Shown piece by piece: positions 1,365 through 20,111 of a stretch of 20,111 nucleotides of DNA (position 1 is the first letter of the stretch; every line of letters starts with the position of its first letter). This DNA is from Naegleria gruberi (taxonomy: Eukaryota), in NCBI GenBank assembly GCA_000004985.1, contig GG738950.1. One strand, 5' to 3'. The notes under the pieces were generated by a model. The model ran no database searches, had not been told where the DNA came from, and saw only the letters and a program-made list of their open reading frames with translations. A program made the position numbers and the translations under genes.

Positions 1365-2020
1365 TATTAGTTTTAATTTTAACTTTTGGAACATACTTCT
1401 TAATGCCAAGAATCATAATCTATTAAAGTTTGCTTTACTTGTTTGTTGGGAGCTCTGAATCAAAATGCGCAGCAAACAACTACATTTTTCATCATTGAGT
1501 CCACCACTAATGTTCTCAGATTAGAACGGAGTATAATTACAGTAATTTTATAACTTAATGTCGGTTCTGCTGTTTGCCCATTGTTGCGCAAACGTAACAT
1601 TACTCTAAATGTTCAAATGAACTTGAAAGCCTTTTTAGAGATTATATCTTGTTCATTGAAATCGTATTTTTACATATTTAGATTAGATCCCCAATCTCAA
1701 GTAACTCAACATTCAATAAAATGGCAATTTGAAAATTCAAAAAAGTGCACAACTCTATAAAAGTAGCTCAGGTTGGCTGATTGAAAGAGAACTCCATTCA
1801 TTGTACAATCATTCTATAACAGCAATAAAAAATGTCTCAACAAGAGTGTTGTTATCTTCCCTCAAGTATGGGAGAGCTAATGAACTTATTGATAGAATTC
1901 ATGTATGTACTAACCGACATTATGTTATAAAATTACTGTAATTATGAATCATCAACATCTAACATTTTATTCAAATATAGGAATAAGGATGAACAATTAT
2001 TTTGTCAATGTATCAATACA

Positions 2021-2311
2021 ATGTCTCATGACAAGAGAATTGAACTATTGAGTGCAATACTTGAATGTTGTACTAATAAATCAATACAAGATCATAATAC
2101 CAATGATAATAAGAATACCATTAATGAAATAATATCTAATGATAATAATAGTTGTAGTTGTACAAGTAATAGCTTAATTGCCTGTACTAATAATAATAGT
2201 AGTACTACTACAAATAGTATTAAGGGTATTAAAAAACAATGTAAAACAACATTGAAAAACAAGAAGAAAATAGCTCTTACATGGAAAACAGTTCGCTCAC
2301 AAACTTTTTAA
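2021..2311 (+). CDS. hypothetical small Cys/Asn-rich protein (96 aa)
   Basis: ORF with a genuine ATG at 2021 (MSHDKRIELLSAILECC...). The upstream ORF 1729..1941 begins with TTG and contains no in-frame ATG. It could join in frame through a GTAATT...ATAG segment (1938..1980), but that would be only 43 nt, so the single-exon model is preferred. I recognise no similarity to a known family. Confidence 0.3.
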   Translation: MSHDKRIELLSAILECCTNKSIQDHNTNDNKNTINEIISNDNNSCSCTSNSLIACTNNNSSTTTNSIKGIKKQCKTTLKNKKKIALTWKTVRSQTF

Positions 2312-2589
2312 TATTATTCTAAAAAACTAGATTTCTAAACAATTCAGCAAATAGTCAATGACAATATAATATACAATTGAGAATATATAACTCATTGTAA
2401 ACTTTAATCCAATTAGAAATAAGAGATCAATATCCTTCCGTAAAGATTCTCAACTTGTCTCGGAGAAAATCTTTTGAAAGATCACACAGGATCATATTGA
2501 TCCAATATCATTCACTTAATAAATGTTCATTGCGATCATTTGGTGGATGATCCTTTTATTATTAATTCAATATTGAACCCAATATTATT

Positions 2590-3018
2590 NNNNNNNNNNN
2601 NNNNNNNNNNNNNNNNNNNNNNNNNNNNNNNNNNNNNNNNNNNNNNNNNNNNNNNNNNNNNNNNNNNNNNNNNNNNNNNNNNNNNNNNNNNNNNNNNNNN
2701 NNNNNNNNNNNNNNNNNNNNNNNNNNNNNNNNNNNNNNNNNNNNNNNNNNNNNNNNNNNNNNNNNNNNNNNNNNNNNNNNNNNNNNNNNNNNNNNNNNNN
2801 NNNNNNNNNNNNNNNNNNNNNNNNNNNNNNNNNNNNNNNNNNNNNNNNNNNNNNNNNNNNNNNNNNNNNNNNNNNNNNNNNNNNNNNNNNNNNNNNNNNN
2901 NNNNNNNNNNNNNNNNNNNNNNNNNNNNNNNNNNNNNNNNNNNNNNNNNNNNNNNNNNNNNNNNNNNNNNNNNNNNNNNNNNNNNNNNNNNNNNNNNNNN
3001 NNNNNNNNNNNNNNNNNN
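2590..3018. other. assembly gap (429 N)
   Basis: Uninterrupted run of n. The ORF-track entries 2540..3031 (+) and 2562..3059 (-) are translations of Ns, not genes. Confidence 0.99.
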
Positions 3019-3043
3019 AGACTATCTATAGTTATATATAAAA

Positions 3044-5092
3044 ATGGTATTTGAAGCAAGAATAGATTTACCTACAATTGAATTAAATAGTAAATTATCA
3101 TTGGCAGAATTTATAATTGAAAAATGTAGAGAACATGGTGATAATATTGCCATGATTGATGGTACTTCACCTGATCCAAATTTACCTAATTGTACATTAA
3201 CATATAATCAAATGGCTGATAACATGTTAACTATTGGTAATAATTTAATAGATCAATTTAATATTAAAAAAGGAAATGTTATTGCTATGATTTTACCAAA
3301 TATACCTTTATTTCCATGTATATTTCATGGTATTGGTTATACTGGTATGTTTTTATACATTTATTTTATTAATTTTATTAATTTATTAATTTTATATTTT
3401 TATTTTATATTTTTTTTAATTTAATATTATATTTAATATTTAATATAATAGGTGGTATTATTACAACATTAAATCCATTATATAGTGTTGAAGAAATTAA
3501 TAATCAATTAAAAGATTCTAATGCTTGTATGATGTTTACATTACAAACATTTTTAGAAAAAACAATTTTAGCCTGTAAAGGAACTAATGTTAAAAATATA
3601 TTTGTATTAAATTATCAACCATCTGATCAATTTAATAATTTATTAAATGAAAATGATTTAATTAAATTAATTGATGCTAAAATTTTATTAGCAAAACAAA
3701 ATGTTGAAATGAGAAAAATTGATATTAATCCATTAGAAGATTTAATTGCTTTACCTTATTCATCTGGTACAACTGGTATGTTTTTAATTTATTTATTTTA
3801 ATATTTTTAATATTTATTTAATATATTTGTAATTTAAATATTAAATAATTTATTTATTTATAATATTTAATAATATAAATAGGATTATCTAAAGGAGTTT
3901 GTTTAACACATTATAATTTAATTAGTAATGTACTTCAAATTGGAGCTAAATATGAAAAATTAACTAAAAATGATGTAATTGTAGCATTATTACCATTTTT
4001 CCATATATATGGAATGACAGTTTTATGTAATTTAGCTTTATATGAAGGTAGTAAGGCAATTACAATGGCTAGATTTGATTTGGAAACATTTTTAAAAATA
4101 GTTCAAAATTATCAAGTGACTAGAACACATTTAGCACCTCCAATTATTTTAGCATTAGCAAAACATCCAATTATAGATAAATATAATTTAACATCTATGA
4201 AATATTGTTTAAGTGGTGCTGCTCCTTTATCTTCTGATGTTTCACAATTACTTTCTAATAGATTAGGTGTTATTGTTAAACAAGGTTATGGTATGACTGA
4301 AAGGTAATTTTTATTATTTAATTTTTTTATTTATTATTTAATTTTATTATTTAATATTTAATTTTAATTATATTTAATAATATTTAATTTAATATTTTAT
4401 AGTTCACCTGTTGTATCAGTATGTGGAGATACAAGTGATTTAATTAAAGATGGATCATCTGGATTATTAGTTAATAATACCAAATTAAAAATTATTGATA
4501 CAGAAACAGGTAATGAAATTACTGAATATGGACAAGTTGGTGAATTATGTTTTTCAGGACCACAAATAATGAAAGGTTATTTAAATAATGAACAAGCAAC
4601 TAAATCAACTTTAATTGATGGTTATTTACATACTGGTGATTTGGGTTATATTGATCAAGATGGTTTCATTTTCATTGTTGATCGTTTGAAAGAATTAATC
4701 AAATATAAGGGTATTCAAGTACCACCATGTCGTATGTACATTGTTTATTTTATACTAATAATATTTAATAATATATTACAATAATATATTTAAAAATAAT
4801 AATAATAGAATTGGAAGGTATATTATGTAAACATCCAAAGATTCTTGATTCAGCAGTTATTGGAGTACCAGATGAAGAAGCAGGTGAATTACCAAAAGCC
4901 TTTGTTGTTCTTCGTCCAAATGAAATCATGACAGAAGAGGAAGTTATGGAATTTGTTTCCCAATTTGTAACTCCACAAAAGAAGATTAGATTGGTTGAAT
5001 TTATTCAGGAAATTCCAAAATCAACTGCTGGTAAAATATTAAGAAGAATTTTAAAACAAAGAGAATTGGAAAAATTAAAGAATATTCAATAA
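3044..5092 (+). CDS. 4-coumarate-CoA ligase-like / acyl-CoA synthetase (AMP-binding, adenylate-forming superfamily), 5 exons, 552 aa
   Basis: Exons 3044-3344, 3452-3775, 3883-4303, 4403-4731 and 4809-5092. Introns are 3345-3451 (107 nt), 3776-3882 (107 nt), 4304-4402 (99 nt) and 4732-4808 (77 nt); all are GT...AG, >85% AT, and each junction restores the frame. Family motifs are present: the AMP-binding signature YSSGTTG|LSKGV across intron 2, GYGMTE|SSPV across intron 3, YHTGDLGYIDQDGFIFIVDRLKELIKYKG, and a C-terminal domain GVPDEEAGELPKAFVV...IPKSTAGKILRR that aligns closely with firefly luciferase and 4CL. ATG 3044 sits in an aaaaATG context and the stop is TAA 5090-5092. The N-terminus FEARIDLPTIELNSKLSLAEFI fits the 4CL N-terminal pattern. 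Confidence 0.85.
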
Positions 5093-6689: not shown

Positions 6690-8171
6690 ATGCCAAAAAT
6701 CAATGATGTTAATAATCAATTACAATCATTAGAATGTAATAATTTAAATAATGATGAATCATTATCATCACTAATGAAATTATCATCCAATGATTGGTAT
6801 GAAATATGTAAATATATTTCACCATGTGATATATTTAGATTATCACAAATTAATACTATATTTTATTATTATTATTTTAATACTAATAATAATAATAATA
6901 TTAATAATAATATTAATAATAATAATAAATATAATTATATAACATTTGAATGGTATCCTAAAATGATAATTAATTCAATTATTAATCATTTAAAAGAAAT
7001 TAAATATATTGAACCATTATTATTTGATAATGAATTTAAAATAATTAGAGAAATTAATTTTAAAATACCTTCAAGACAATATTGGAAACAATTACTAAAA
7101 ATATATTTAAAATTTAATTATTTAATTTTATTAGATCAGGATAAAAATAATGTAAATAATTATGAATTTATTATTAATATTAAATCTAATCATTTTAAAT
7201 ATTTTTTTGAAAAATATAAAATTAATGAAAATATTTTAAATAATATTGAAAATAATTTAAATGAAAATTTAATTTTAAAATGTCATGGTTATAAATATGA
7301 TAATAATAATATTAATTTATTTAATATTGAAAAAATTATTATTAATCAAGAATTAAATCCAATTGATATTACTATTGCAATTGCTAATATTGAAAGAATT
7401 CCTAAAAATGGAACATTTCATAAAACTTTAAAAAATATTTTATATTTAATTTATCAAAGTAATGAAATTTCAAATAATGTAGAAAAGGCATTAATTAAAT
7501 ATGATCATATTATTAATCAAGAATTTATTTATCCAAATAGAAATATTTCCTTTAAAGTAAATAGATTAGATAAATTTAACAAAATTTATTATTGTTATAA
7601 ATTAAATTCATATCCTGCTACTATAAATATATTAAATAATCCATTTAGAATAATTCCAACATTTACTAAAAATATTTATTTTAAATTAATTGGATTTACA
7701 ATTTTAGATTTTATTTATTTATTTTTATTAATTTATTATTTTAAAATTAAATTTGAATCTGATACATATTCTTGGTTTAGACATACAATTGATTATTATA
7801 ATTCTGAATATTTTAAATCTGGTTCATTTATTTATAGAATATTTGATTATTTTCTATATTTAGCAATATCAATATCATTTTTATTTATCCCAATTAGTGC
7901 TATTATTCCATTTTTACAATTATTTGAATATTTAATGGATAGTGATTTTTTTAAACCACCTATTATTAGAGAAAGAGAATCAATTTATAATTTATTTGGA
8001 ATTTTTGAATTGTTACATGTTTTACAATATATTTATTTATTTATAAATATATGTTTAAATGCATATGGTAAAATTAAATTATTATATCATTCTATTAAAT
8101 TATCATTGAATAATTATTGTAAAAATAGTAATAATTGGTTTATTAAATTATTTAAAAAATATTTATTGTAA
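6690..8171 (+). CDS. hypothetical protein with an N-terminal F-box-like motif, an Asn-rich linker and C-terminal hydrophobic (likely transmembrane) segments; 493 aa, single exon
   Basis: ATG in an aaaaaaaaATG context, 1482-nt ORF, TAA stop at 8169-8171. The N-terminal stretch LSSNDWYEICKYISPCDIFRLSQINTIFY fits the F-box pattern (L..E.L..I.S.L...DL..L..V.K.W). A poly-Asn tract NNNNNINNNINNNNK follows. The C-terminal third has several ~20-residue hydrophobic stretches (FTILDFIYLFLLIYYF, LYLAISISFLFIPISAIIPFLQLF, LLHVLQYIYLFINICL). The gene is extremely AT-rich compared with neighbouring genes. Confidence 0.55.
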   Translation: MPKINDVNNQLQSLECNNLNNDESLSSLMKLSSNDWYEICKYISPCDIFRLSQINTIFYYYYFNTNNNNNINNNINNNNKYNYITFEWYPKMIINSIINHLKEIKYIEPLLFDNEFKIIREINFKIPSRQYWKQLLKIYLKFNYLILLDQDKNNVNNYEFIINIKSNHFKYFFEKYKINENILNNIENNLNENLILKCHGYKYDNNNINLFNIEKIIINQELNPIDITIAIANIERIPKNGTFHKTLKNILYLIYQSNEISNNVEKALIKYDHIINQEFIYPNRNISFKVNRLDKFNKIYYCYKLNSYPATINILNNPFRIIPTFTKNIYFKLIGFTILDFIYLFLLIYYFKIKFESDTYSWFRHTIDYYNSEYFKSGSFIYRIFDYFLYLAISISFLFIPISAIIPFLQLFEYLMDSDFFKPPIIRERESIYNLFGIFELLHVLQYIYLFINICLNAYGKIKLLYHSIKLSLNNYCKNSNNWFIKLFKKYLL

Positions 8172-8733: not shown

Positions 8734-10829
8734 ATGCAAAAGATTGGTTCAAATATTAAGAAAATTAAGAAGGGTTATTCATCATCCAACCCCCTTAGAA
8801 ATTGTATTAATAATACTCAACATTGTTCTTATTCCGATTATCAATCTCATCATTCATTTTCTAAAGATGTTATATTTACTAATGAAGTATGTTTAATATT
8901 CTCTCTAAAAATATTCATCTTACAATCATCATAATGTATCTTACTATTCATCATCATACAATCATATTATTATTGTATATATTATTTTTATCAATTAAGA
9001 GTGGTATTGATGTAATGAATAATGGATTATTAAATAAGGGAACATCATTTAGTAAAACAGAACGTGATAGATTAGGTATTAGAGGGTTAATTCCACCAAC
9101 AGTTTCAAATATAGATACTCAATTAATGAGATTAAAAGAAAGATTTAGTACCATTCAAACAGATATTGAAAAGTATCAATTTTGTACACAATTACATGAT
9201 CGTAATGAGACTTTATTTTACTATTTTATTGTAAATAATATTAAGGAATTAGCTCCAATTATTTATACACCAACTGTTGGAAAGGCTTGTGAAAACTTTT
9301 CACATATTTTCCGTAAACCAAGAGGAATGTTCTTTTCAACTTTAGATAAAGGTGAAATGAAATCAATGGTTTATAATTGGCCAGTTGAAGAAGTTGATGT
9401 TATAGTTGTAACTGATGGTGGTAGAATTTTAGGTTTAGGTGATTTGGGTGCTAATGGTGATGGTATTCCAATTGGTAAATTATCTTTATACGTTGCTGCA
9501 GGTGGTATTAATCCAGGAAGAGTTTTACCTGTTTTATTGGTATGTTTAATGATTTATATACATGTATATATTTAATATTCTTATTATTTAACCTTAATGA
9601 ATCTATTAATATATGAAATCAAATATATGAAATCAAACATAATATGAAATCAAATATATATGAAAATATAGGATGTTGGTACAAATAATGAAAAGTTATT
9701 TAATGATCCATTATATTTAGGATTGAGACAAAAGAGATTAACAGGACCTGAATATTATGAACTAGTTGAGGAATGGGTAGATGCCATAGTTTCAAGATGG
9801 CCAAATGTATTAATTCAATGGGAAGATTTTTCAAGTGATAAAGCAGATGCACTCTTACAAAAATATCGTGATAGAATTTTATGTTTCAATGATGATATTC
9901 AAGGAACTGCAAGTGTTATTCTATCAGGTGTTTTAAATTGTTTAAGAGCTACTGGTCAATCATTTTCAGATATAACAAAACAAAAGATTTTAATTGTTGG
10001 TTCAGGTGCTGCTGGAATGGGTGTTGTTTCTGGTTTGAAAGAAGCAATGAAAAGAGAAGGTTTAACTGAAGAAGAAGCATTGAAGAATTTTTATATTGTT
10101 GATAAAGATGGTTTATTAACAAGTGAAAGATTAAATGAAATGGGATCAACATTATCTGATACTGCAAAAATGTTTGCTTATGCTAGAAATGATATGAAAG
10201 AAGGATCATCACTACTTGATGTTGTAAAACAAGCTGAACCAGATATTTTATTAGGAATGTCAAGTCAACCTGGATTATTCTGTGAAGAAGTATTAACATA
10301 TTTTAATTCAGCATGTAAGAGAAAGGGAAAGACACCAATTGTATTCCCACTTTCAAATCCAACATCTAAGGCAGAATGTACAGCTGAATCAGTATTTAAA
10401 ATAACAGATGGAAATGCTATTTTTGCAAGTGGATCACCATTTAATCCTGTACCATTACCTAATGGACAAGTTATTCAAACATCACAAGCAAATAATATGT
10501 TTGCTTATCCAGGTGTTGGTTTAGCTGCTGTTTTATCAGGATGTAATACTATATCAGATAATATGTTTTATGCTGCTTCTAAATCACTTGCTGCAACTGT
10601 TTCAGATGAAGCATTGAAGAGAAAGGAAATTTATCCACATGTTGAAGATATTAGAGAAGTTAGTAAGAAGGTTGCAATTGGTGTAATGAGACAAGCATAT
10701 TATGAAGGTAATGCAAAGAAACTTAAACATTTACCAAAGGAATTTATTGATTCTGATATTGAAATGGATAAATATGTATCAACAAGAATGTGGACTCCAA
10801 AATATGTACCAATTGTCGTAAAGGATTAA
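8734..10829 (+). CDS. malic enzyme (NAD(P)-dependent malate dehydrogenase, decarboxylating), 3 exons, ~616 aa, with a Lys-rich N-terminal extension
   Basis: Exons are 8734-8886, 9000-9539 and 9672-10829. Both introns are phase 0, start GTATGT, end with AG, and measure 113 nt (8887-8999) and 132 nt (9540-9671). Family motifs are present: LLNKGTSFSKTERDRLGIRGLIPP, VVTDGGRILGLGDLGANGDGIPIGKLSLYVAAGG, |DVGTNNEKLFNDPLYLGLRQKR, QWEDF, CFNDDIQGTASV and IVGSGAAGMGV (a Rossmann-fold motif). The stop is TAA 10827-10829. Exon 1 encodes MQKIGSNIKKIKKGYSSSNPLRN..., with an optional upstream TTG at 8710. Confidence 0.85.
9611..9655 (+). repeat. intronic tandem repeat (~14 bp x3: atatgaaatcaaaY)
   Basis: atatgaaatcaaat / atatgaaatcaaac / ataatatgaaatcaaat inside intron 2 of the malic enzyme gene. 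Confidence 0.5.
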
Positions 10830-10978
10830 ATTATTTTTTTATATTTATTTATTCGAATTGAAATTGAATTTAACTTGTTAGAGTAGATTGAATTCATATA
10901 CCATATTAAGAATATTAACTTTAAAGGATGAATTGGTAACAATAGAAATTTGTTAATTTGATTTTAGAGAAGAAAAAA

Positions 10979-11677
10979 ATGGTAAAGACTACATCAACCA
11001 AATCATTATTTTCATCTTTATCATCACCAGACTCATCATTAACCTCTTCATCATCTTCAAATTTTGAATCTTTATTTGAAAAATCTAAAAGTCAATTTGA
11101 TCAAATTTCACTAGAATTTGAATTAATCCTAAATACTTATAAACTTAAATCACAAAAATTAGATCTCACTGAAAGGAAATTAACTAAAAAGGAGAAATTA
11201 TTGAAAGAGAGAGAATTACACCTTAATGAAAGAGAAACTATTGTAAAAGAACATGAAGAATATTTTAATTGTTTAGAAAAGAAATTATCAATCACCACAA
11301 CAATTGAAACTAAATTAGGAAAAAATCAAAAAGTTAAATTAGATATCGGTGGTAAAATATTTGTAACAACTTTATCAACATTAACAAGTGTTAAAGATAC
11401 ATTCTTTACTGGTTATTTTAATGATCATTTCAATCCAACCGTTGAAGATGATGATAATTCATTCTTTATTGATAGACCAAATGAACAATTTCATTTAATT
11501 TTAAATTATTTGAGAGGAATTGATATTAAATGTAAAATAGCAAGTTTAAATGAATGTGATTTAAATGATTTTATTGAAGAAATTGTTTATTATCAATTAA
11601 CACCTATATATGAAATATTGCCCTCCAATGGAATTGATATTTTGAGAACAAAATATTCCATTAATAGTAATCCTTAA
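10979..11677 (+). CDS. KCTD-like BTB/POZ (K+ channel tetramerisation T1-type) domain protein with an N-terminal Ser-rich and coiled-coil region, 232 aa
   Basis: ATG in an aaaaaaATGg context; the track's 10958 start is a TTG. The segment VKLDIGGKIFVTTLSTLTSVKDTFFTGYFNDHFNPTVEDDDNSFFIDRPNEQFHLILNYLRG matches the T1/BTB_2 consensus (V.LNVGG..F.T...TL....S.L..........D..G.YFIDRDG..F..ILNYLR.G). The preceding KLDLTERKLTKKEKLLKERELHLNERETIVKEHEEYF is heptad-like and charged. The stop is TAA 11675-11677. Confidence 0.7.
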   Translation: MVKTTSTKSLFSSLSSPDSSLTSSSSSNFESLFEKSKSQFDQISLEFELILNTYKLKSQKLDLTERKLTKKEKLLKERELHLNERETIVKEHEEYFNCLEKKLSITTTIETKLGKNQKVKLDIGGKIFVTTLSTLTSVKDTFFTGYFNDHFNPTVEDDDNSFFIDRPNEQFHLILNYLRGIDIKCKIASLNECDLNDFIEEIVYYQLTPIYEILPSNGIDILRTKYSINSNP

Positions 11678-12881: not shown

Positions 12882-12962
12882 CGCGGTCTACAGGATTCGA
12901 ACCTGTGCGGGTCGCCCCAATTGATTTCTAGTCAATCACCTTAACCACTCGGTCAAGACCGC
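12882..12962 (-). tRNA. tRNA-Ser(AGA): tRNA-Ser (anticodon AGA)
   Basis: The reverse complement reads GCGGTCT-TG-ACCGAGTGGTTAAGGT-GATTGACTAGAAATCAATT-GGGGCGACCCGC (long variable arm)-ACAGGTTCGAATCCTGT-AGACCGC-G. It is 81 nt and matches eukaryotic tRNA-Ser class II architecture. The anticodon loop CTAGAAA has AGA at positions 34-36. The minus-strand T-run TTTTT (plus-strand AAAAA at 12875-12879) sits 2 nt past the 3' end. Confidence 0.8.
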
Positions 12963-13669
12963 TTCACATCAATGCCATAAATATTGCTACAGAGATTATT
13001 TAGAGGTTGTATTGAGCTAATCATCCAAAAGAAATCCATTTGCTTCCTTATATTTGAAGTCATATAGTTTCCAATTTCCTTTCTTCCATGATAGTAATTA
13101 TCTATTGTGAGAGCATCCATTGCAAAATTCAAATTATTACGCAATCTATTGGATGCATAACCAAAAGCAGATGAAAATTGTTTAATTCCTGCCATAATAA
13201 CATCTTCATCATCCTTCAACTTGTCAGATATGTAGTACATAAAACTTGAATCACCATTCATTCTACATGAATCTATTGTATCCATAACAAACGATTTTGA
13301 GTCTCTCAACTCTTCAGAAGCATATTGGAAACAATTAGTAGTCTCACGGACAGCCATTGTCATGATAGAACGATCACCCAACAAATCTGAATCAAAATAT
13401 TTGACAACCTCCTCAGCCTTCGAATCCCAATCAATGATGGCCTTCTCAATGAATTCCTTTTTCTTTTTCAAACGATCGGATAAGAATCGATAGGTTGTAG
13501 GTGAATGTTCTAAAGCCTTTGCCATCCAATATTCATCATCATTATTAGGAAAATCATGTACTCCAAATACATATTCTATATCTTCCGGATTGACATTAAT
13601 AAATTCAGTGGTAATAAATTCTTCCATAGATAAATTTGCATAGGAAGAAGCTACTGGTTGTTCTGACAT
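12953..13669 (-). CDS. hypothetical protein with ~35-aa repeats resembling DUF4116-type repeats, 238 aa
   Basis: ATG at rc 13667-13669 after an A-rich leader. Three repeats of similar pattern, WMAKALEHSPTTYRFLSDRLKKKKEFIEKAIID / TMAVRETTNCFQYASEELRDSKSFVMDTIDSC / IMAGIKQFSSAFGYASNRLRNNLNFAMDALTID, match the DUF4116 repeat signature as I recall it (a..a.....L.YAS..L..d.efvl.A). The TGA stop (rc 12953-12955) lies inside the first 10 nt of the downstream tRNA-Ser(AGA). Confidence 0.5.
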   Translation of the reverse strand: MSEQPVASSYANLSMEEFITTEFINVNPEDIEYVFGVHDFPNNDDEYWMAKALEHSPTTYRFLSDRLKKKKEFIEKAIIDWDSKAEEVVKYFDSDLLGDRSIMTMAVRETTNCFQYASEELRDSKSFVMDTIDSCRMNGDSSFMYYISDKLKDDEDVIMAGIKQFSSAFGYASNRLRNNLNFAMDALTIDNYYHGRKEIGNYMTSNIRKQMDFFWMISSIQPLNNLCSNIYGIDVKRS

Positions 13670-14012: not shown

Positions 14013-15986
14013 ATGAACTCACTTCCTACAGACACAATTTTATACTTAATGGATTTTATGATCATTCCATCGGGTGAATATAAAAACATATTTTCATTAA
14101 ATCGACATTGGAAAGAAGCAACGGAGGAAAATCCTGAATTTTGGTTAAGACAATTAGCAGGCTTGTTTTTTATGATTTGTAAAGAAAAGGAAAATATTGG
14201 AGGTGATTCTAATACGGAATTGCCATCACCAACATCATCTTCATCCTCAACTTTGGATCAATCAAAGTCAATTACTACTGGTCATCAATTGTTTTCTATT
14301 CAAGGCTTGAATTATTTTCAATTTTATTGTAAATTCTTTTGTAATAGGAAAGGAATGCACCATTTAATGAAACATCAACCAGTTTTAAAGAAGATTTTTA
14401 AAAAAGTTGCTGATTTTCTTGTAATTATTGAAATGAGAGAACATAATGAAAAAATTGAAGATTTTAGTTTAATTAGAAAAACATTTCTAAATTTAAATTC
14501 GAATATTAAGGGATATGTAAAGACTAAATTTGAAAAGGAAAAATTATCAATGTTGACACATTCAAAAGTATTTGATTATTATCAACAATATCAATTCTTT
14601 TTTAAGGATGAATATGAAATTAATCAAGATTTAATTAATTCAAAAACTGATACAAGTTATGACGTATATTGGACCTATTTACTTTCATACACTAAAAGTA
14701 TTGAACAACAGAAAGGATTGGATCTATTACAATTGTTTCTAGATAATAATATTTATTCTAAACAATATTTTATTAGAAAGGTAGCAACTTTGATATTATT
14801 ATTGACACTTTCAGAAATAGAAGATGAATCATACCGAGAAAAAGTATTTGAATTATTATTGAAAATATTGAAGAAATATTTTCAAACTTCAATTGCTTCG
14901 AATTTTACTGCCAAGTATGAAAAGGGAAGCGAATTATTTTCATTCATGTTGTTTGATCCGTATGAAACGGCTAGAATTAAATTGAAATATATTGAGAGAG
15001 TGAAACAAGAAATTGCTCCAAGTATTGTTTCAAAAGGTTTTGACAAACAGGCAAAAGACCTCAAAATAATCTATACTCAAACTGAACTAATTGATCTAGT
15101 AGGAAGTACAGATTTTTATCAATTAATTGGATACATTTTACAAAATTTCCATTGTGATCCTGTTATGCTTGATAAAATACTATCACGTGCCATTAATAGA
15201 ATAACCATTTTAGAATTTTACAAACAATCAAAAATAACGTACAGCAAAGTTTGCAATTTGAAGTTTTTTATTTCCAATGATGATTTTCAGTTTGAATTTG
15301 AGGAGGTACTTCCTATTATACTTAAACATTACGAAACTGATGGAAAGGATATGAGGCAATTAATCAAAGATTTCCAAAAATCAACTGAACCATTTAATGA
15401 AATTTTACGATTAGGAAATAATTTAGAAATGTTGAGAATTAGGTTACGATACTTTTTCAAACTCTATTCTCAATTTTTTACAAAGGATCAAATCAAGATG
15501 TTCCTTAAACATGCCTATTTCCACTCTGGAATGATTGGACAAAGTCATAACATTGAGGTTACTAAAATCTTTTTCGAAGATTATCAATTGACTCCATCAG
15601 ATTGTTCAATGGTTGTAACCTCGATAAATCCGTCAATATTCAAATGGACTGAAGATATTCAGAATGCAGTCCATAATTTTCCATCCAAATTTACGCCACA
15701 TAAGAAACCTAAAGAATTTAAAATGCACCCAATTGTGAATCACATTCTTACTAGAAGGGATAGAGATCATATTGGTAATTTAGATGGATTTGTGGAAATT
15801 TGTGGAGATGATAGAGTTGTAATTCCTCTCCTTCTCGATCATAATGGAGCTTCTCGTGATGTCAAGCAACATATTTATGTAGATTATATGGAGCAAAAGA
15901 AAAAGGAACAAGCCTACAGATACGTAATCAAATACATCACCTTAAAGGAATTGATTAAGAGCCCAAATATGAAAATACTGTACTAA
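14013..15986 (+). CDS. hypothetical protein with an N-terminal F-box-like motif, 657 aa, single exon
   Basis: ATG in an aaaaaaaaaATG context; 1974-nt ORF, TAA stop at 15984-15986. The N-terminal LPTDTILYLMDFMIIPSGEYKNIFSLNRHWKEATEENPEFW matches the F-box consensus (LP.EIL..IF..L......L..V.K.W........LW). I recognise no other domain. Confidence 0.55.
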   Translation: MNSLPTDTILYLMDFMIIPSGEYKNIFSLNRHWKEATEENPEFWLRQLAGLFFMICKEKENIGGDSNTELPSPTSSSSSTLDQSKSITTGHQLFSIQGLNYFQFYCKFFCNRKGMHHLMKHQPVLKKIFKKVADFLVIIEMREHNEKIEDFSLIRKTFLNLNSNIKGYVKTKFEKEKLSMLTHSKVFDYYQQYQFFFKDEYEINQDLINSKTDTSYDVYWTYLLSYTKSIEQQKGLDLLQLFLDNNIYSKQYFIRKVATLILLLTLSEIEDESYREKVFELLLKILKKYFQTSIASNFTAKYEKGSELFSFMLFDPYETARIKLKYIERVKQEIAPSIVSKGFDKQAKDLKIIYTQTELIDLVGSTDFYQLIGYILQNFHCDPVMLDKILSRAINRITILEFYKQSKITYSKVCNLKFFISNDDFQFEFEEVLPIILKHYETDGKDMRQLIKDFQKSTEPFNEILRLGNNLEMLRIRLRYFFKLYSQFFTKDQIKMFLKHAYFHSGMIGQSHNIEVTKIFFEDYQLTPSDCSMVVTSINPSIFKWTEDIQNAVHNFPSKFTPHKKPKEFKMHPIVNHILTRRDRDHIGNLDGFVEICGDDRVVIPLLLDHNGASRDVKQHIYVDYMEQKKKEQAYRYVIKYITLKELIKSPNMKILY

Positions 15987-16317: not shown

Positions 16318-18077
16318 ATGTCTTCAATCCTTGTTGTCGGTGTTTTTGGCACTGATGGTAAACTCTCAACCACTGCTCAAACTATTTTTACCTCTAAATT
16401 CCAAGACAACAAATTCTTAAAGAACAATTCATGGGTTGGCACTGATCGTAGTGTTGAATTGTCCTTGTTGAATGTTGATGATGTTTTTGAGACTAGTTTC
16501 ACTCTCAGAAATACTATTGAAAAGATTGTTTTTGTTGGTGTTGCTCAAAAGGAAAAGAAGCCTACAGAAAATTCAAGTGTTTTTGAACTCTCATCACAAT
16601 ATAGTCAACAAGCTGTTGCTGATAGACATGAATTTGTTACTCTCAACCAATCTATTAGAAATCAAGTAACAACTCTTGTTGAATCCATCAAGAAGGATAA
16701 GAAGGATGAAAAATTCGTTATTTACTTTGATGATTTCAATGGTCATTCACAAGCTGTTGCTGAAGGTGCTGCTTTGGCTACTTGGAAATTTGATTTGGAC
16801 TTTGATAAGTTTTTGGCTCCAATCTTTGGTCGTGATGGTTTATTGTTGAATTCATTCAAGGCTCTCCCATCGGCCACTGAAAATGATCAAAAGCAATTCA
16901 AGACTGGTATTATTACTGGTAGCTCTCAATTGTTCAGTAGATATATTTTGGAACTTCCAGGTAAGTTTAATTTGATATCAAGTATTATTAACAGGATTCA
17001 TTTATTATCTATTATATACTACTTTTGATCATAATAATAATAATATTATAATTTTATAATTAATTGTTAACATCTGTATCTACACACAACAATATTCGGA
17101 ATGTCATATCATTGTCATACTATTTAGCTAACTATTGTACACCAATCAAATATTGTGATTTACTTAAATTGAAGATTGAAAAGTATTCATTGTTCGTCAG
17201 TCAAGAATTCCTCTCTGCCAAGAGTAAGATTAATGTCTACGATGAAGAATGGGCTAAATCAAAGGGTATGGGATCATTCCTCTCCGTTACTGCTGGTACT
17301 AGTGCTCCAGCTAGAGTTTTGGAAGTTGTCTATACTAACAATTCTCAAAAGAAGGCTGATGAATACGATTTGGCTATTCTTGGTAAGGGTATTACTTTCG
17401 ATTCTGGTGGTATTTCATTAAAGCCAGGTGAAGGTATGAAGGAAATGAAGGGAGATTGTGGTGGTTCATCTGCTGCTTTTGGTGCTGCTGTTGCTGCTTT
17501 GGAATTGGAATTGCCATTGAATATTATCACTGTTGCCATGTTGTGTGAAAATATGCCAGGTCCAGATGCTACCAAGCCAGGTGATGTTGTCATTGCTATG
17601 AATGGAAAGACTATTGAAGTTGATAACACTGATGCTGAAGGTAGATTAATTTTGGCTGATGGTTTGTGTTATTTGAGTGAAAAGCAACCAGAAGTTTTGT
17701 TGGATATGGCAACTTTGACAGGTGCTGTTATTATTGCCCTTTCTCATGTTACTGCTGCTGTTTACACTAATTCTCATGAATTATTTGCTGGTTTGGAAAA
17801 GGCCTCTTATCAAACAAATGATTACTTGTGGAGAATGCCAATTTTCAGAGATGAATATTTGGGTCAAATGAAGTCAGATGTTTCTGATTACAACAATATT
17901 GGAGGTAGACCAGGTGGTAGTTGTACTGCTGCTACTTTCTTGAGTGAATTTGTTGATTTCTCAAAGGTTAAGAAGTGGGCTCACTTGGATATTGCTGCTG
18001 TTACTCACACTAAGGCAGGATACACTGGTAGACCAACTCGTGCCATTGTTGAATATATGCAACAACTCTCAAAATAA
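16318..18077 (+). CDS. leucyl/cytosol aminopeptidase, peptidase family M17, 2 exons, ~530 aa
   Basis: Exons are 16318-16960 and 17128-18077. The intron, 16961-17127, is 167 nt, GTAAGT...TTTAG, phase 1, and restores ...ILELPG|ANYCTPIKY, matching the M17 NTPAN.LTP motif. Catalytic-domain signatures are present: AILGKGITFDSGGISLKPGEGMKEMKGDCGGSSA, CENMPGPDATKPGDVV, NTDAEGRLILADGLCYL and LDMATLTGAV. ATG 16318 lies in an aaaaaaagaaacaacATG context; the upstream extension in the track starts at TTG 16246. The stop is TAA 18075-18077. Codon usage, biased to ggt, gct and ttg, suggests high expression. Confidence 0.85.
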
Positions 18078-18109
18078 ATTATTTGATTTCCTCTTATTGA
18101 TGTCTTATG

Positions 18110-18115
18110 AATAAA
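18110..18115 (+). promoter_or_regulatory. candidate polyadenylation signal AATAAA downstream of the aminopeptidase stop
   Basis: gAATAAAcc lies 33 nt after the TAA; another AATAAA overlaps the stop codon at 18073-18078. Sequence motif only. Confidence 0.3.
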
Positions 18116-18321
18116 CCTCCAAGCTCAATTTCACTTACTATGCTGCCTACTACAACAATTCCACAAGACTTTTGTTGAATCCATGTATTTGAAATTCAAA
18201 TGTTGGCGATTGGGAATATTTTGGAGAATGGTTGAGAATTTAATTTATGTTCACTCACATAGAATTGTTCAATAAATAACGTTTGGTATTGATATAAGAG
18301 ACATTAATAAAGTTTCACGTT

Positions 18322-20111
18322 TTATTCTTCACCAATTTCATTGTGACCAATATTAAGTGATGTTAATTGTTTCATTTCACTTATGTATTTGGATCCTTCT
18401 ACACCAATTTGATTGTAACCAATATTAAGTGATGTTAATGATTTCATTCCACTTATGTATTTGGCTCCTTCTACACCAATTTCATTGTAACCAATATTAA
18501 GTGATGTTAATTGTTTCATTTCACTTATGTATTTGGATCCTTCTACACCAATTTGATTGTAACCAATATTAAGTGATGTTAATGATTTCATTCCACTTAT
18601 GTATTTGGATCCTTCTACACTAATTTCATTGTGACCAATATTAAGTGATGTTAATTGTTTCATTTCACTTATGTATTTGGATCCTTCTACACCAATTTGA
18701 TTGTAACCAATATTAAGTGATGTTAATGATTTCATTCCACTTATGTATTTGGCTCCTTCTTCACCAATTTCATTGTGACCAATATTAAGTGATGTTAATT
18801 GTTTCATTTCACTTATGTATTTGGATCCTTCTACACCAATTTGATTGTAACCAATATAAAGTGATGTTAATGATTTCATTCCACTTATGTATTTGGCTCC
18901 TTCTACACTAATTTGATTGTAACCAATATTAAGTGATGTTAATTGTTTCATTTCACTTATGTATTTGGATCCTTCTACACCAATTTCATTGGAATGTATA
19001 TCAAGTGATGTTAATTGATTCATTTCACTTATGTATTTGGATCCTTCTACACCAATTTGATTGTAACCAATATTAAGTGATGTTAATTGTTTCATTTCAC
19101 TTATGTATTTGGATCCTTCTACACCGATTTCATTGGAATGTATATCAAGTGATGTTAATGATTTCATTTCACTTATGTATTTGGCTCCTTCTACACCAAT
19201 TTCATTGGAATATATATCAAGTGATGTTAATTGTTTCATTTCACTTATGTATTTGGATCCTTCTACACCAATTTCATTGGAATGCATATCAAGTGAAGTT
19301 AATTGATTCATTTCACTTATGTATTTGGCTCCTTCTATACCAATTTCATTGGAATATATATCGAGTGATGTTAATGATTCATTTCACTTATGTATTTGGA
19401 TCCTTCTGCACCAATTTGATTGGAATGTATATCAAGTGATGTTAATTGATTCATTTCACTTATGTATTTGGCTCCTTCTATACCAATTTCATTGGAATAT
19501 ATATCGAGTGATGTTAATGTTTCATTTCACTTATGTATTTGGATCCTTCTACACCAATTTGATTGTAACCAATATTAAGTGATGTTAATTGTTTCATTTC
19601 ACTTATGTATTTGGATCCTTCTACACCAATTTCATTGGAATGTATATCAAGTGATGTTAATTGATTCATTTCACTTATGTATTTGGATCCTTCTACACCA
19701 ATTTGATTGGAACAATATTAAGTGATGTTAATTGTTTCATTTCACTTATGTATTTGGATCCTTCTACACCAATTTCATTGGAATGTATATCAAGTGATGT
19801 TAATTGATTTCATTTCACTTATGTATTTGGCTCCTTCTACACCAATTTCATTGGAATATATATCGAGTGATGTTAATTGATTCATTTCACTTATGTATTT
19901 GGATCCTTCTGCACCAATTTGATTGGAATGTATATCAAGTGATGTTAATTGATTCATTTCACTTATGTATTTGGCTCCTTCTATACCAATTTCATTGGAA
20001 TATATATCAAGTGATGTTAATGATTTCATTTCACTTATGTATTTGGATCCTTCTGCACCAATTTGATTGTAATGTATATCAAGTGATGTTAATTGATTCA
20101 TTTCACTTATG
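18322..20111 (-). CDS. leucine-rich-repeat protein (24-aa RNI-like LRR units, LTSLNIGYNQIGVEGSKYISEMKQ), C-terminal part; gene continues beyond the right window edge
   Basis: Minus-strand stop at rc 18322-18324 (...NIGHNEIGEE*). A continuous 329-codon ORF runs 18322-19311 and a 103-codon ORF runs 19790-20101, both made only of 24-aa LRR units with the pattern L..L.I..N.IG.EG.KYIS.MK., in which the conserved Leu, Ile and Asn positions of a typical LRR are clear. The intervening 19312-19789 is the same repeat but carries four 1-nt indels that break the frame. There is no start codon in the window. Confidence 0.6.
18325..20111. repeat. 72-bp tandem repeat array of about 25 units, with a 144-bp higher-order period toward the 3' end of the gene, coding for the LRR units
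   Basis: The consensus unit ttcacttatgtatttggatccttctacaccaatttgattgtaaccaatattaagtgatgttaattgtttca recurs head-to-tail from 18325 to the window edge. Units alternate between ...gttaattgtttcatttcac (EMKQ) and ...gttaatgatttcattccac (GMKS). The four 144-bp pairs nearest 18322 are nearly identical, and the upstream units are more diverged. Confidence 0.9.

Follow-up and report, generated by a model that had tools for sequence, protein, structure and literature searches.

The window, that is, the whole stretch of 20,111 nucleotides of Naegleria gruberi DNA analyzed here, ends in a long tandem array of LRR-coding units whose reading frame is repeatedly broken. This raises the question of whether the array belongs to a decaying gene or to an intact gene that has been garbled in a draft assembly, and of what kind of protein the gene encodes. 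Tandem Repeats Finder (TRF) detects one array with a period of 72, 24.8 copies, 89% matches, 1% indels and a score of 2592; its coordinates are given in Table 1 together with those of the other features. The coding strand of the array is the minus strand. Because the array runs off the end of the window, the 5' part of the LRR gene is located outside the window. The last LRR is placed directly at the stop codon, indicating that any other domain of the gene must be N-terminal.

Units were defined by cutting the array at the invariant motif AAATACATAAGTG, which yields 24 units and, where the window ends, a partial one of 67 nt. The unit length is 72 nt with four exceptions, and the last unit, which is closed by the stop codon, has 66 nt. 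The reading frame of the array shifts five times, and every segment is open in its own frame, containing neither in-frame stops nor substitutions that break the consensus. Translation of the array gives perfect 24-aa units of the form KYISEMKQLTSLNIGYNQIGVEG(S/A), and the three minus-strand frames combined produce an unbroken series of these 24-residue units. The array protein matches LRR_6 and LRR_8 of Pfam with E-values of 7e-64 and 3.6e-58, respectively. The sequence LTSL(N/D)I(G/H/Y)(Y/S/H)N is present in 25 of the 25 units with a period of 24 aa, and the array consists of tandem units within the 20-30 residues and with the LxxLxLxxN motif that define the LRR superfamily. The region corresponds to the C-terminal part of a genuine protein-coding LRR gene, with at least 25 units. 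A coding LRR array on the minus strand, as proposed in the first-pass annotation of this DNA, is borne out by TRF, translation and Pfam. The array of at least 25 consecutive units described there is also present, but more precisely it consists of 24 complete units and one that is truncated by the end of the window.

Table 1. Positions of the LRR-coding array, its broken units and its flanking features in the window
Feature	Position	Strand	Basis or detail
M17 leucyl aminopeptidase gene	16327-18077	+	canonical 167-nt intron GTAAGT...TAG, 19.8% GC
244-bp spacer on which the M17 aminopeptidase gene (+) and the LRR gene (-) converge with their 3' ends	18078..18321		
TAA stop codon	18322-18324	-	protein C-terminus ...LNIGHNEIGEE, then stop
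72-bp tandem array of 24-aa GALA/GL-type LRR units (24 + one partial), type assigned from sequence	18325..20111	-	TRF, unit dissection, Pfam LRR_6, RipG4 match
Intact 3' reading frame, unit 10 (past the indel) to unit 24	18322..19374	-	translation, AF2 model
Listed ORF from an internal ATG, 329 aa	18322..19311	-	ORF list
144-bp higher-order repeat, units 17-24; GMKS..NIGYNQIGVEGS alternating with EMKQ..NIGHNEIG(E/V)EGA	18325..18894	-	difference matrix
Unit 4, 73 nt	19756-19828	-	+1 site 19801..19810, string AAATCAATTA
Unit 5, 71 nt	19685-19755	-	-1 site 19709..19716, ATTG-TTCC
Unit 8, 71 nt	19470-19540	-	-1 site 19515..19522, AAACATTA
Unit 10, 71 nt	19327-19397	-	-1 site 19372..19379, AATCATTA

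The unit of 72 nt, or 24 aa, has the length of the GALA/GL repeat, and its pattern N-(Q/E)-I-G-(V/I/A/E)-E-G-(A/S) shows the GALA/GL residues at positions 5, 6, 9 and 10 when Asn is taken as position 3. The Ile residue is present in all 25 units, the first Gly in 23 of 25 (Ser in the other two) and the second Gly in all 24 units that reach this position, and position 10 is occupied by Ala in 8 units and by Ser in 16. Position 16 is an invariant Met. This is intermediate between the two patterns, since GL-LRR has Leu at this position and in GALA proper no apolar residue is conserved there (PMC2244805). The GALA/GL-LRR pattern has been assigned to the CC-LRR subfamily by Kajava et al. (PMC2244805). 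Judged from its sequence, the 24-residue repeat belongs to the CC-LRR subfamily and is of the GALA/GL type.

Among 215 solved structures matched by sequence, 9j7j (RipG4, E=4.9e-39) and 4xa9 (E=6.8e-25) rank first and second, and in the alignment with 9j7j about 12 units are matched in register and without gaps. An AF2 model of the intact 3' reading frame, obtained with an alignment of 30 homologues, has a pLDDT of 96.5 and a pTM of 0.92. In this predicted model, a 3-residue strand and an 8-9-residue helix recur every 24 aa, forming a solenoid with one beta-strand per unit and a concave face. Foldseek gives the LRR domain of RipG4 (9j7j) as the best fold match of the model, with a TM of 0.81, an rmsd of 2.4 Å and 29% identity; ribonuclease inhibitors are the next fold matches. 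A single-sequence AF2 run was discarded; it reached a pLDDT of 86 but was all-beta and had no structural match. The earlier description of the repeat as an RNI-like LRR is correct for the fold, which is RI-like with a TM of 0.83-0.88 normalized to the query, but not for the subfamily, which is GALA/GL: the alternating 28/29-residue repeats of the RI type are not found, the unit being strictly 24 aa throughout.

Only 18 of the 72 columns are variable among the units, and the changes are nearly all non-synonymous and confined to ten codons. The variable residues are x5 (D/N/Y), x7 (H/Y/G) and x8 (S/Y/H) of LTSLxIxxN and those of N-(Q/E)-I, G-(V/I/A/E)-E, (S/A), S-(E/G)-M and (K/N)(Q/S). The x5, x7 and x8 residues of an LRR unit are situated on the concave, ligand-binding face. 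The difference matrix reveals several sets of identical units (2=9; 6=15; 7=14; 19=21=23; 18=24). The double units of the 144-bp higher-order repeat are 97-99% identical, and the four double units adjoining the stop codon show only 1-4 nt differences per 138-144 nt. The identical units and the 144-bp period show that the array has been homogenized by unequal crossing-over or gene conversion, and such exchange between units keeps the array homogeneous. Homogenization by unequal exchange had been read from the letters before, and the identical units and the near-identical double units beside the stop codon agree with it.

The array contains exactly four 1-nt indels, which give units 4, 5, 8 and 10 lengths of 73, 71, 71 and 71 nt, respectively. 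The K/N-Q/S-L codons have three intact forms, KS (AAATCATTA), NQ (AATCAATTA) and KQ (AAACAATTA), and the KS and NQ forms can be aligned as two compensating 1-nt shifts. Unit 4 (AAATCAATTA) is half-way between KS and NQ/KQ and has both extra bases, and outside its indel site it is identical to units 6 and 15. Unit 8 (AAACATTA) is KQ on its left side and KS on its right side. Unit 10 (AATCATTA) combines a left side of NQ with a right side of KS and has neither extra base. Unit 5 corresponds to units 7 and 14 minus one G and with an A>C change; its break joins a NIGYN-type left half to a DIHSN-type C at the place where both sequence types diverge. The diagnostic strings of the broken units, in minus-strand sense, are GAAATGAAATCAATTAACATC (unit 4), AATATTGTTCCAATCAAATTG (unit 5), GAAATGAAACATTAACATC (unit 8) and GAAATGAATCATTAACATC (unit 10). 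A further diagnostic k-mer of the 73/71-nt units is AATATTGTTCCAATCAA, and the intact counterparts of the broken-unit strings are GAAATGAAATCATTAACATC, GAAATGAATCAATTAACATC and GAAATGAAACAATTAACATC.

In a chance test, every single-base deletion and insertion in the intact units was enumerated for half-way strings. Such strings arise from 3.5% of the deletions and 0.6% of the insertions, and three of the four observed indels are half-way strings, the probability of at least three of four being 6.5e-5 under random indels. The indels are thus tied to the mixing of repeat subtypes. A first chimera test, in which out-of-register joins were allowed, was uninformative, 96% of the possible deletions having passed it. 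The indels are not generic but are placed at subtype junctions, and the breaks are subtype chimeras. Units 8 and 10 are a single substitution apart, and the -1 state and a private CTC+ATA combination occur in each of the two. The first-pass annotation had reported four independent 1-nt indels. The four indels are indeed found at the strings that it quoted (+ strand 19371, 19513, 19704 and 19799), but their independence is improbable in view of the state and the combination shared by units 8 and 10, and they are probably not four independent events.

As the cause of the mixing of subtypes, a mis-registered consensus or a collapse in the draft assembly is somewhat favored over a real, recently broken pseudogene. 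On this explanation, the frame breaks would be chimeric units arising from the mixing of the KS, NQ and KQ subtypes and not decay mutations, the mixing would have occurred when, in a gapped draft, a consensus was made of reads that were out of register by one unit or more, and the true gene would be intact. The window is interrupted by a sized gap of 429 N at 2590-3018 and by a lone N at 409, indicating that it derives from a draft scaffold, and the array runs off the end of the window. In agreement with an assembly origin, each sub-frame is fully open and conforms to the LRR consensus, at most 1-2 substitutions besides the indel separate the broken units from intact ones, and the indel-to-substitution ratio is about 1:1, unlike that of neutral decay. 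However, in unit 5 the deletion does not correspond to a chimera joined in register, and the -1 state with the private CTC+ATA combination in units 8 and 10 looks like a broken unit inherited through a 144-bp duplication, in which case the event would be real. The half-way strings are expected both from real gene conversion and from a consensus of mis-registered reads, so that the two cannot be told apart by where the indels lie. Collapse or error of the assembly, which was also the cause preferred at first, is still the leading candidate in the light of the 429-N gap and the lone N.

The breaks may instead be real and mark a recently inactivated pseudogene in which units of the KS, NQ and KQ subtypes underwent gene conversion or unequal crossing-over within the gene, and this reading carries a substantial though lesser probability. 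Exchange end-points that fall between the two compensating 1-nt differences would create chimeric 71/73-nt units, and such exchange gives exactly the half-way strings. At best, a 5'-truncated LRR-only ORF starting at the internal ATG (Table 1) would be left. The -1 state and the private haplotype shared by units 8 and 10 are expected of a duplicated broken unit, and the placement of the indels outside homopolymers, together with the clean rest of the window, excludes generic sequencing error. Several N. gruberi paralogue models stop abruptly a few residues past an LRR strand, which is a weak hint of birth-and-death turnover. Against this, three to four separate rare events would be needed within 0.5 kb, each with end-points within about 4 nt of the 72-nt unit, while point substitutions stay near absent and all sub-frames stay open. 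The assembly is moreover a gapped draft, in which arrays of this kind are a classic site of mis-assembly, and L002, the locus of a metagenome paralogue, has a natural end with neither a frameshift nor out-of-frame LRRs. If the breaks are real, they could mark a hyper-recombining LRR locus, which would be an F-box/LRR receptor gene with rapid turnover or else a store of donor cassettes, but this is unlikely. Exchange between subtypes would then reshuffle the concave-face residues x5, x7 and x8 and occasionally yield frame-broken cassettes, and such a locus could evolve in conflict with intracellular bacteria (Legionella and its relatives) that bear GALA-type LRR mimics of the host.

Causes other than an artefact or a real pseudogene are quite improbable even when they are taken together. 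Generic errors in base calling or homopolymer length that have nothing to do with the repeat structure are very improbable: each indel is formally a length change of a 2-3 nt run, but the array has no homopolymer of 4 bases or more, and ORFs with 16-18 runs of at least 5 bases remain open (6690-8171, 14% GC, 16 runs; 14013-15986, 18 runs). The neighbouring ORFs contain 56 homopolymer runs of at least 5 bases in total and are all open, and the M17 aminopeptidase aligned to its orthologue is frameshift-free. The other coding sequence of the window, about 8.3 kb, is free of frameshifts where about 18.5 indels would be expected at the rate of the array (P about 9e-9), and three of the four indels fall on the single 10-nt site of the subtype shift differences (P=6.5e-5). 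Bypass of the breaks by very short introns, programmed ribosomal frameshifting or insertional RNA editing to give one long protein is hardly credible, as had already been said of introns and frameshifting, because GT at position 11 and AG at position 64, the formal removal of whose 53-55 nt restores the frame, are present in every unit and would make splicing unspecific and delete 18 of the 24 residues of the repeat, because both +1 and -1 shifts would be required with stops about 10-30 codons past each shift, and because the 71-73-nt units have a uniform composition of 29% GC with no insert as against a verified window intron of 167 nt (GTAAGT..TAG, 19.8% GC).

The nature of the protein was approached through its relatives. 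The nearest proteins are N. gruberi 'predicted proteins' with 47-78% identity to the array over the aligned repeats (P0121, 47% over 88% of the query; P0130, 72% over 39%; P0145, 78% over 32%). The N-terminal region of the paralogues contains the motif FSDDxCFEIxSFxDxxFILxNCxLISKQWFNVIxER, which is followed by LRRs of the 24-residue type of the array. In Pfam, this motif narrowly misses the thresholds of F-box-like, with 23.6 bits against 24.3, and of F-box, with 20.4 bits against 20.5, and all 10 of the 10 PDB matches of the N-terminal profile are F-box proteins (E=0.05-1.3). The motif is likely to be a divergent F-box. No F-box-like N-terminus is found anywhere in the window, and no other LRRs are found in it outside the array. 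Since the window has no F-box-like N-terminus and the LRRs extend up to the stop codon, any partner domain must be located upstream of 20111. By homology with the N. gruberi paralogues, the missing N-terminus would most likely be a divergent F-box. The protein would then serve as a substrate receptor of an SCF ubiquitin ligase, in which the F-box would dock on Skp1 and the concave LRR face would bind the target through x5, x7 and x8.

The placement of the LRRs at the C-terminus fits either an F-box-LRR or a NACHT-LRR protein and excludes an LRR-Roc-COR one. As in SCF receptors, in which the LRRs are C-terminal to the F-box, the LRRs of the window reach the stop codon and those of the paralogues come after the motif. 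A ROCO protein, in which Roc-COR follows the LRRs, was rejected, the stop codon being directly after the last LRR. A few metagenomic homologues have Ras/Roc domains (P0124, P0128, P0136 and P0149). A NACHT or NB-ARC Pfam domain is listed for 0 of the 120 closest homologues. The innate-immunity or NACHT reading offered earlier is without support, the nearest relatives being F-box-like/LRR proteins.

The family members inspected have about 4-15 repeats, and the window copy with at least 25 is atypical. Odd C-terminal tails are seen in N. gruberi models (..FIITIVLVMKEPSS, ..DIGDNPNW and ..LFIGAIREQ), and these tails are suspected to be out-of-frame readings of LRRs. The locus L003 was set aside as bacterial. 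A metagenome scan for the repeat unit with 3-5 nt left free at the variable site gave 0 matches. A literature description specific to the Naegleria F-box-like/GALA-type LRR family was not found. As a whole, the explanation that the locus is a Naegleria GALA/GL-type LRR gene with an F-box by homology, whose breaks are subtype chimeras made by the assembly, has about an even chance of being right.

The neighbouring genes are eukaryotic and bear on the host. The M17 aminopeptidase is 78% identical to that of Naegleria lovaniensis and 68% identical to that of Willaertia magna, and a malic enzyme encoded in the window is 80% identical to that of N. lovaniensis and 61-63% identical to that of Willaertia. 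The identities of 78% and 80% to N. lovaniensis confirm the amoebal host suggested earlier and assign the window to Naegleria or an organism very close to it. An N. gruberi orthologue of the M17 aminopeptidase or the malic enzyme is absent among the matches listed. There is no LRR gene beside the M17 aminopeptidase of N. lovaniensis, and so the position of the LRR gene is not conserved. The 694-aa neighbour of the N. lovaniensis M17 aminopeptidase is unrelated to the window ORF at 14013-15986.

For annotation, these observations mean that gene callers will split or drop the LRR gene and that the breaks are no basis for a pseudogene call before the reads have been checked. A coding repeat whose subtypes differ by compensating 1-nt shifts contains an inherent trap: any mixing of units, whether in the cell or in the assembler, leads to frameshifts at one predictable site. 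Naegleria has a sizeable F-box-like family with GALA-type LRRs, the repeat type of the Ralstonia RipG and Legionella LegL effectors, and the window gene is an unusually long and homogeneous member of this family. The family is the eukaryotic counterpart of RipG and LegL. A eukaryotic origin of those bacterial mimics has been proposed (PMC2244805), and the repeat type common to the Naegleria family and RipG/LegL makes the family relevant to this origin.

Among known systems, the F-box-like/LRR paralogues of N. gruberi (NAEGRDRAFT_58930; P0121, P0126, P0130 and P0145, annotated as 'predicted protein' or 'LRR_RI domain-containing protein') are of the same genus-level lineage and have the unit (G)AK(F/Y)ISEMKQLTSL(D/N)I..N.IG.EG in common with the window copy. 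Like the window copy, they carry LRRs to or near the C-terminus. However, they have about 4-15 fairly diverged repeats, whereas the window gene has at least 25, many with identical DNA sequences, and its assembled frame is broken. Ribonuclease inhibitor is likewise a horseshoe with a strand and a helix per repeat (Foldseek TM 0.83-0.88 normalized to the query), but its repeats alternate between 28 and 29 residues as against strictly 24 in the window, and the identity is 16-19%. SCF receptors of the FBXL (F-box/CC-LRR) type, such as Skp2, are alike in the proposed architecture and mechanism. The canonical CC-LRRs of FBXL proteins have 26 residues and conserved Cys residues, whereas the repeat of the window gene has 24 residues and its F-box is putative. 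The GALA/RipG effectors of Ralstonia solanacearum (RipG4, 9j7j) and LegL1 of Legionella (4xa9) have the 24-residue unit N-x-I-G-x-x-G-A in common with the window gene. RipG4 and its kin differ at position 16, where GALA has no conserved apolar residue and the window repeat has a conserved, GL-like Met. RipG and LegL1 are secreted bacterial effectors that mimic host F-box proteins, whereas the window gene is a eukaryotic nuclear gene with intron-containing neighbours. In RipG, the LRRs come after an F-box, and this architecture agrees with that of the Naegleria paralogues (PMC2244805).

The 429-N scaffold gap and the lone ambiguous base mark the window as a gapped draft assembly; they also depress the apparent GC content in the profile of positions 2000-3500. 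By their YSSGTTG and GYGMTE motifs, the five short ORFs that follow the gap read like exons of a gene for an AMP-dependent synthetase/ligase. The spacers between them are AT-rich (14-20% GC), and the first two ORFs read on into GTATGT. The 5' end of this synthetase/ligase-like gene was probably lost in the gap.

Features of the window other than the LRR array and the M17 aminopeptidase gene
Feature	Coordinates	Strand	Remark
Single ambiguous base	409		
Scaffold gap	2590-3018		429 N
Short ORF 1	3044-3424	+	
Short ORF 2	3529-3801	+	
Short ORF 3	4014-4307	+	
Short ORF 4	4569-4784	+	
Short ORF 5	4811-5092	+	five ORFs span 3044-5092
493-aa ORF	6690-8171	+	open throughout at only 14% GC
Malic enzyme gene	8889-10829	+	interrupted by ~150-nt intron
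BTB_2 (potassium-channel tetramerisation type) domain protein	10958-11677	+	E=7.6e-18
Protein with five DUF4116 repeats	12953-13669	-	E=1.5e-32
657-aa ORF	14013-15986	+	

The product of the 493-aa ORF is Asn-rich and of low complexity, with hydrophobic segments at its C-terminal end, and has no Pfam match; an ORF of this length is unlikely to have arisen by chance in DNA this AT-rich. A 14-17-bp tandem repeat (9608-9665) sits inside the malic enzyme intron, and the closest homologue of the enzyme is that of N. lovaniensis, with 80% identity. An N. gruberi orthologue is absent among the listed homologues of both the malic enzyme and the M17 aminopeptidase. The malic enzyme gene and the 657-aa ORF enclose the BTB_2 and DUF4116 genes. 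The 657-aa ORF has neither a Pfam match nor an identical protein record in the look-up, and it shows no relationship to the 694-aa orphan gene flanking the N. lovaniensis aminopeptidase.

Several N. gruberi F-box-like/LRR protein models (P0126, P0130, P0145, P0187 and P0200) end only a few residues past an LRR beta-strand, in tails that are not LRR sequence. Two such tails, ..AKFIITIVLVMKEPSS and ..DIGDNPNW, resemble a repeat read out of frame, and, judging from the tails of the protein models, frame-broken arrays could be common across this family.

Outside Naegleria, many of the closest relatives of the LRR repeat come from bacterial groups known as inhabitants or associates of eukaryotic cells (Legionellaceae, Rickettsiaceae), from 'Solimicrobium' or from metagenome bins; locus L003 is also bacterial. 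Ralstonia RipG7, a member of the GALA-LRR effector family, is also present in the homologue list. This set of relatives is in keeping with the proposal that eukaryotic hosts and the bacteria living inside their cells have exchanged GALA-type LRRs.
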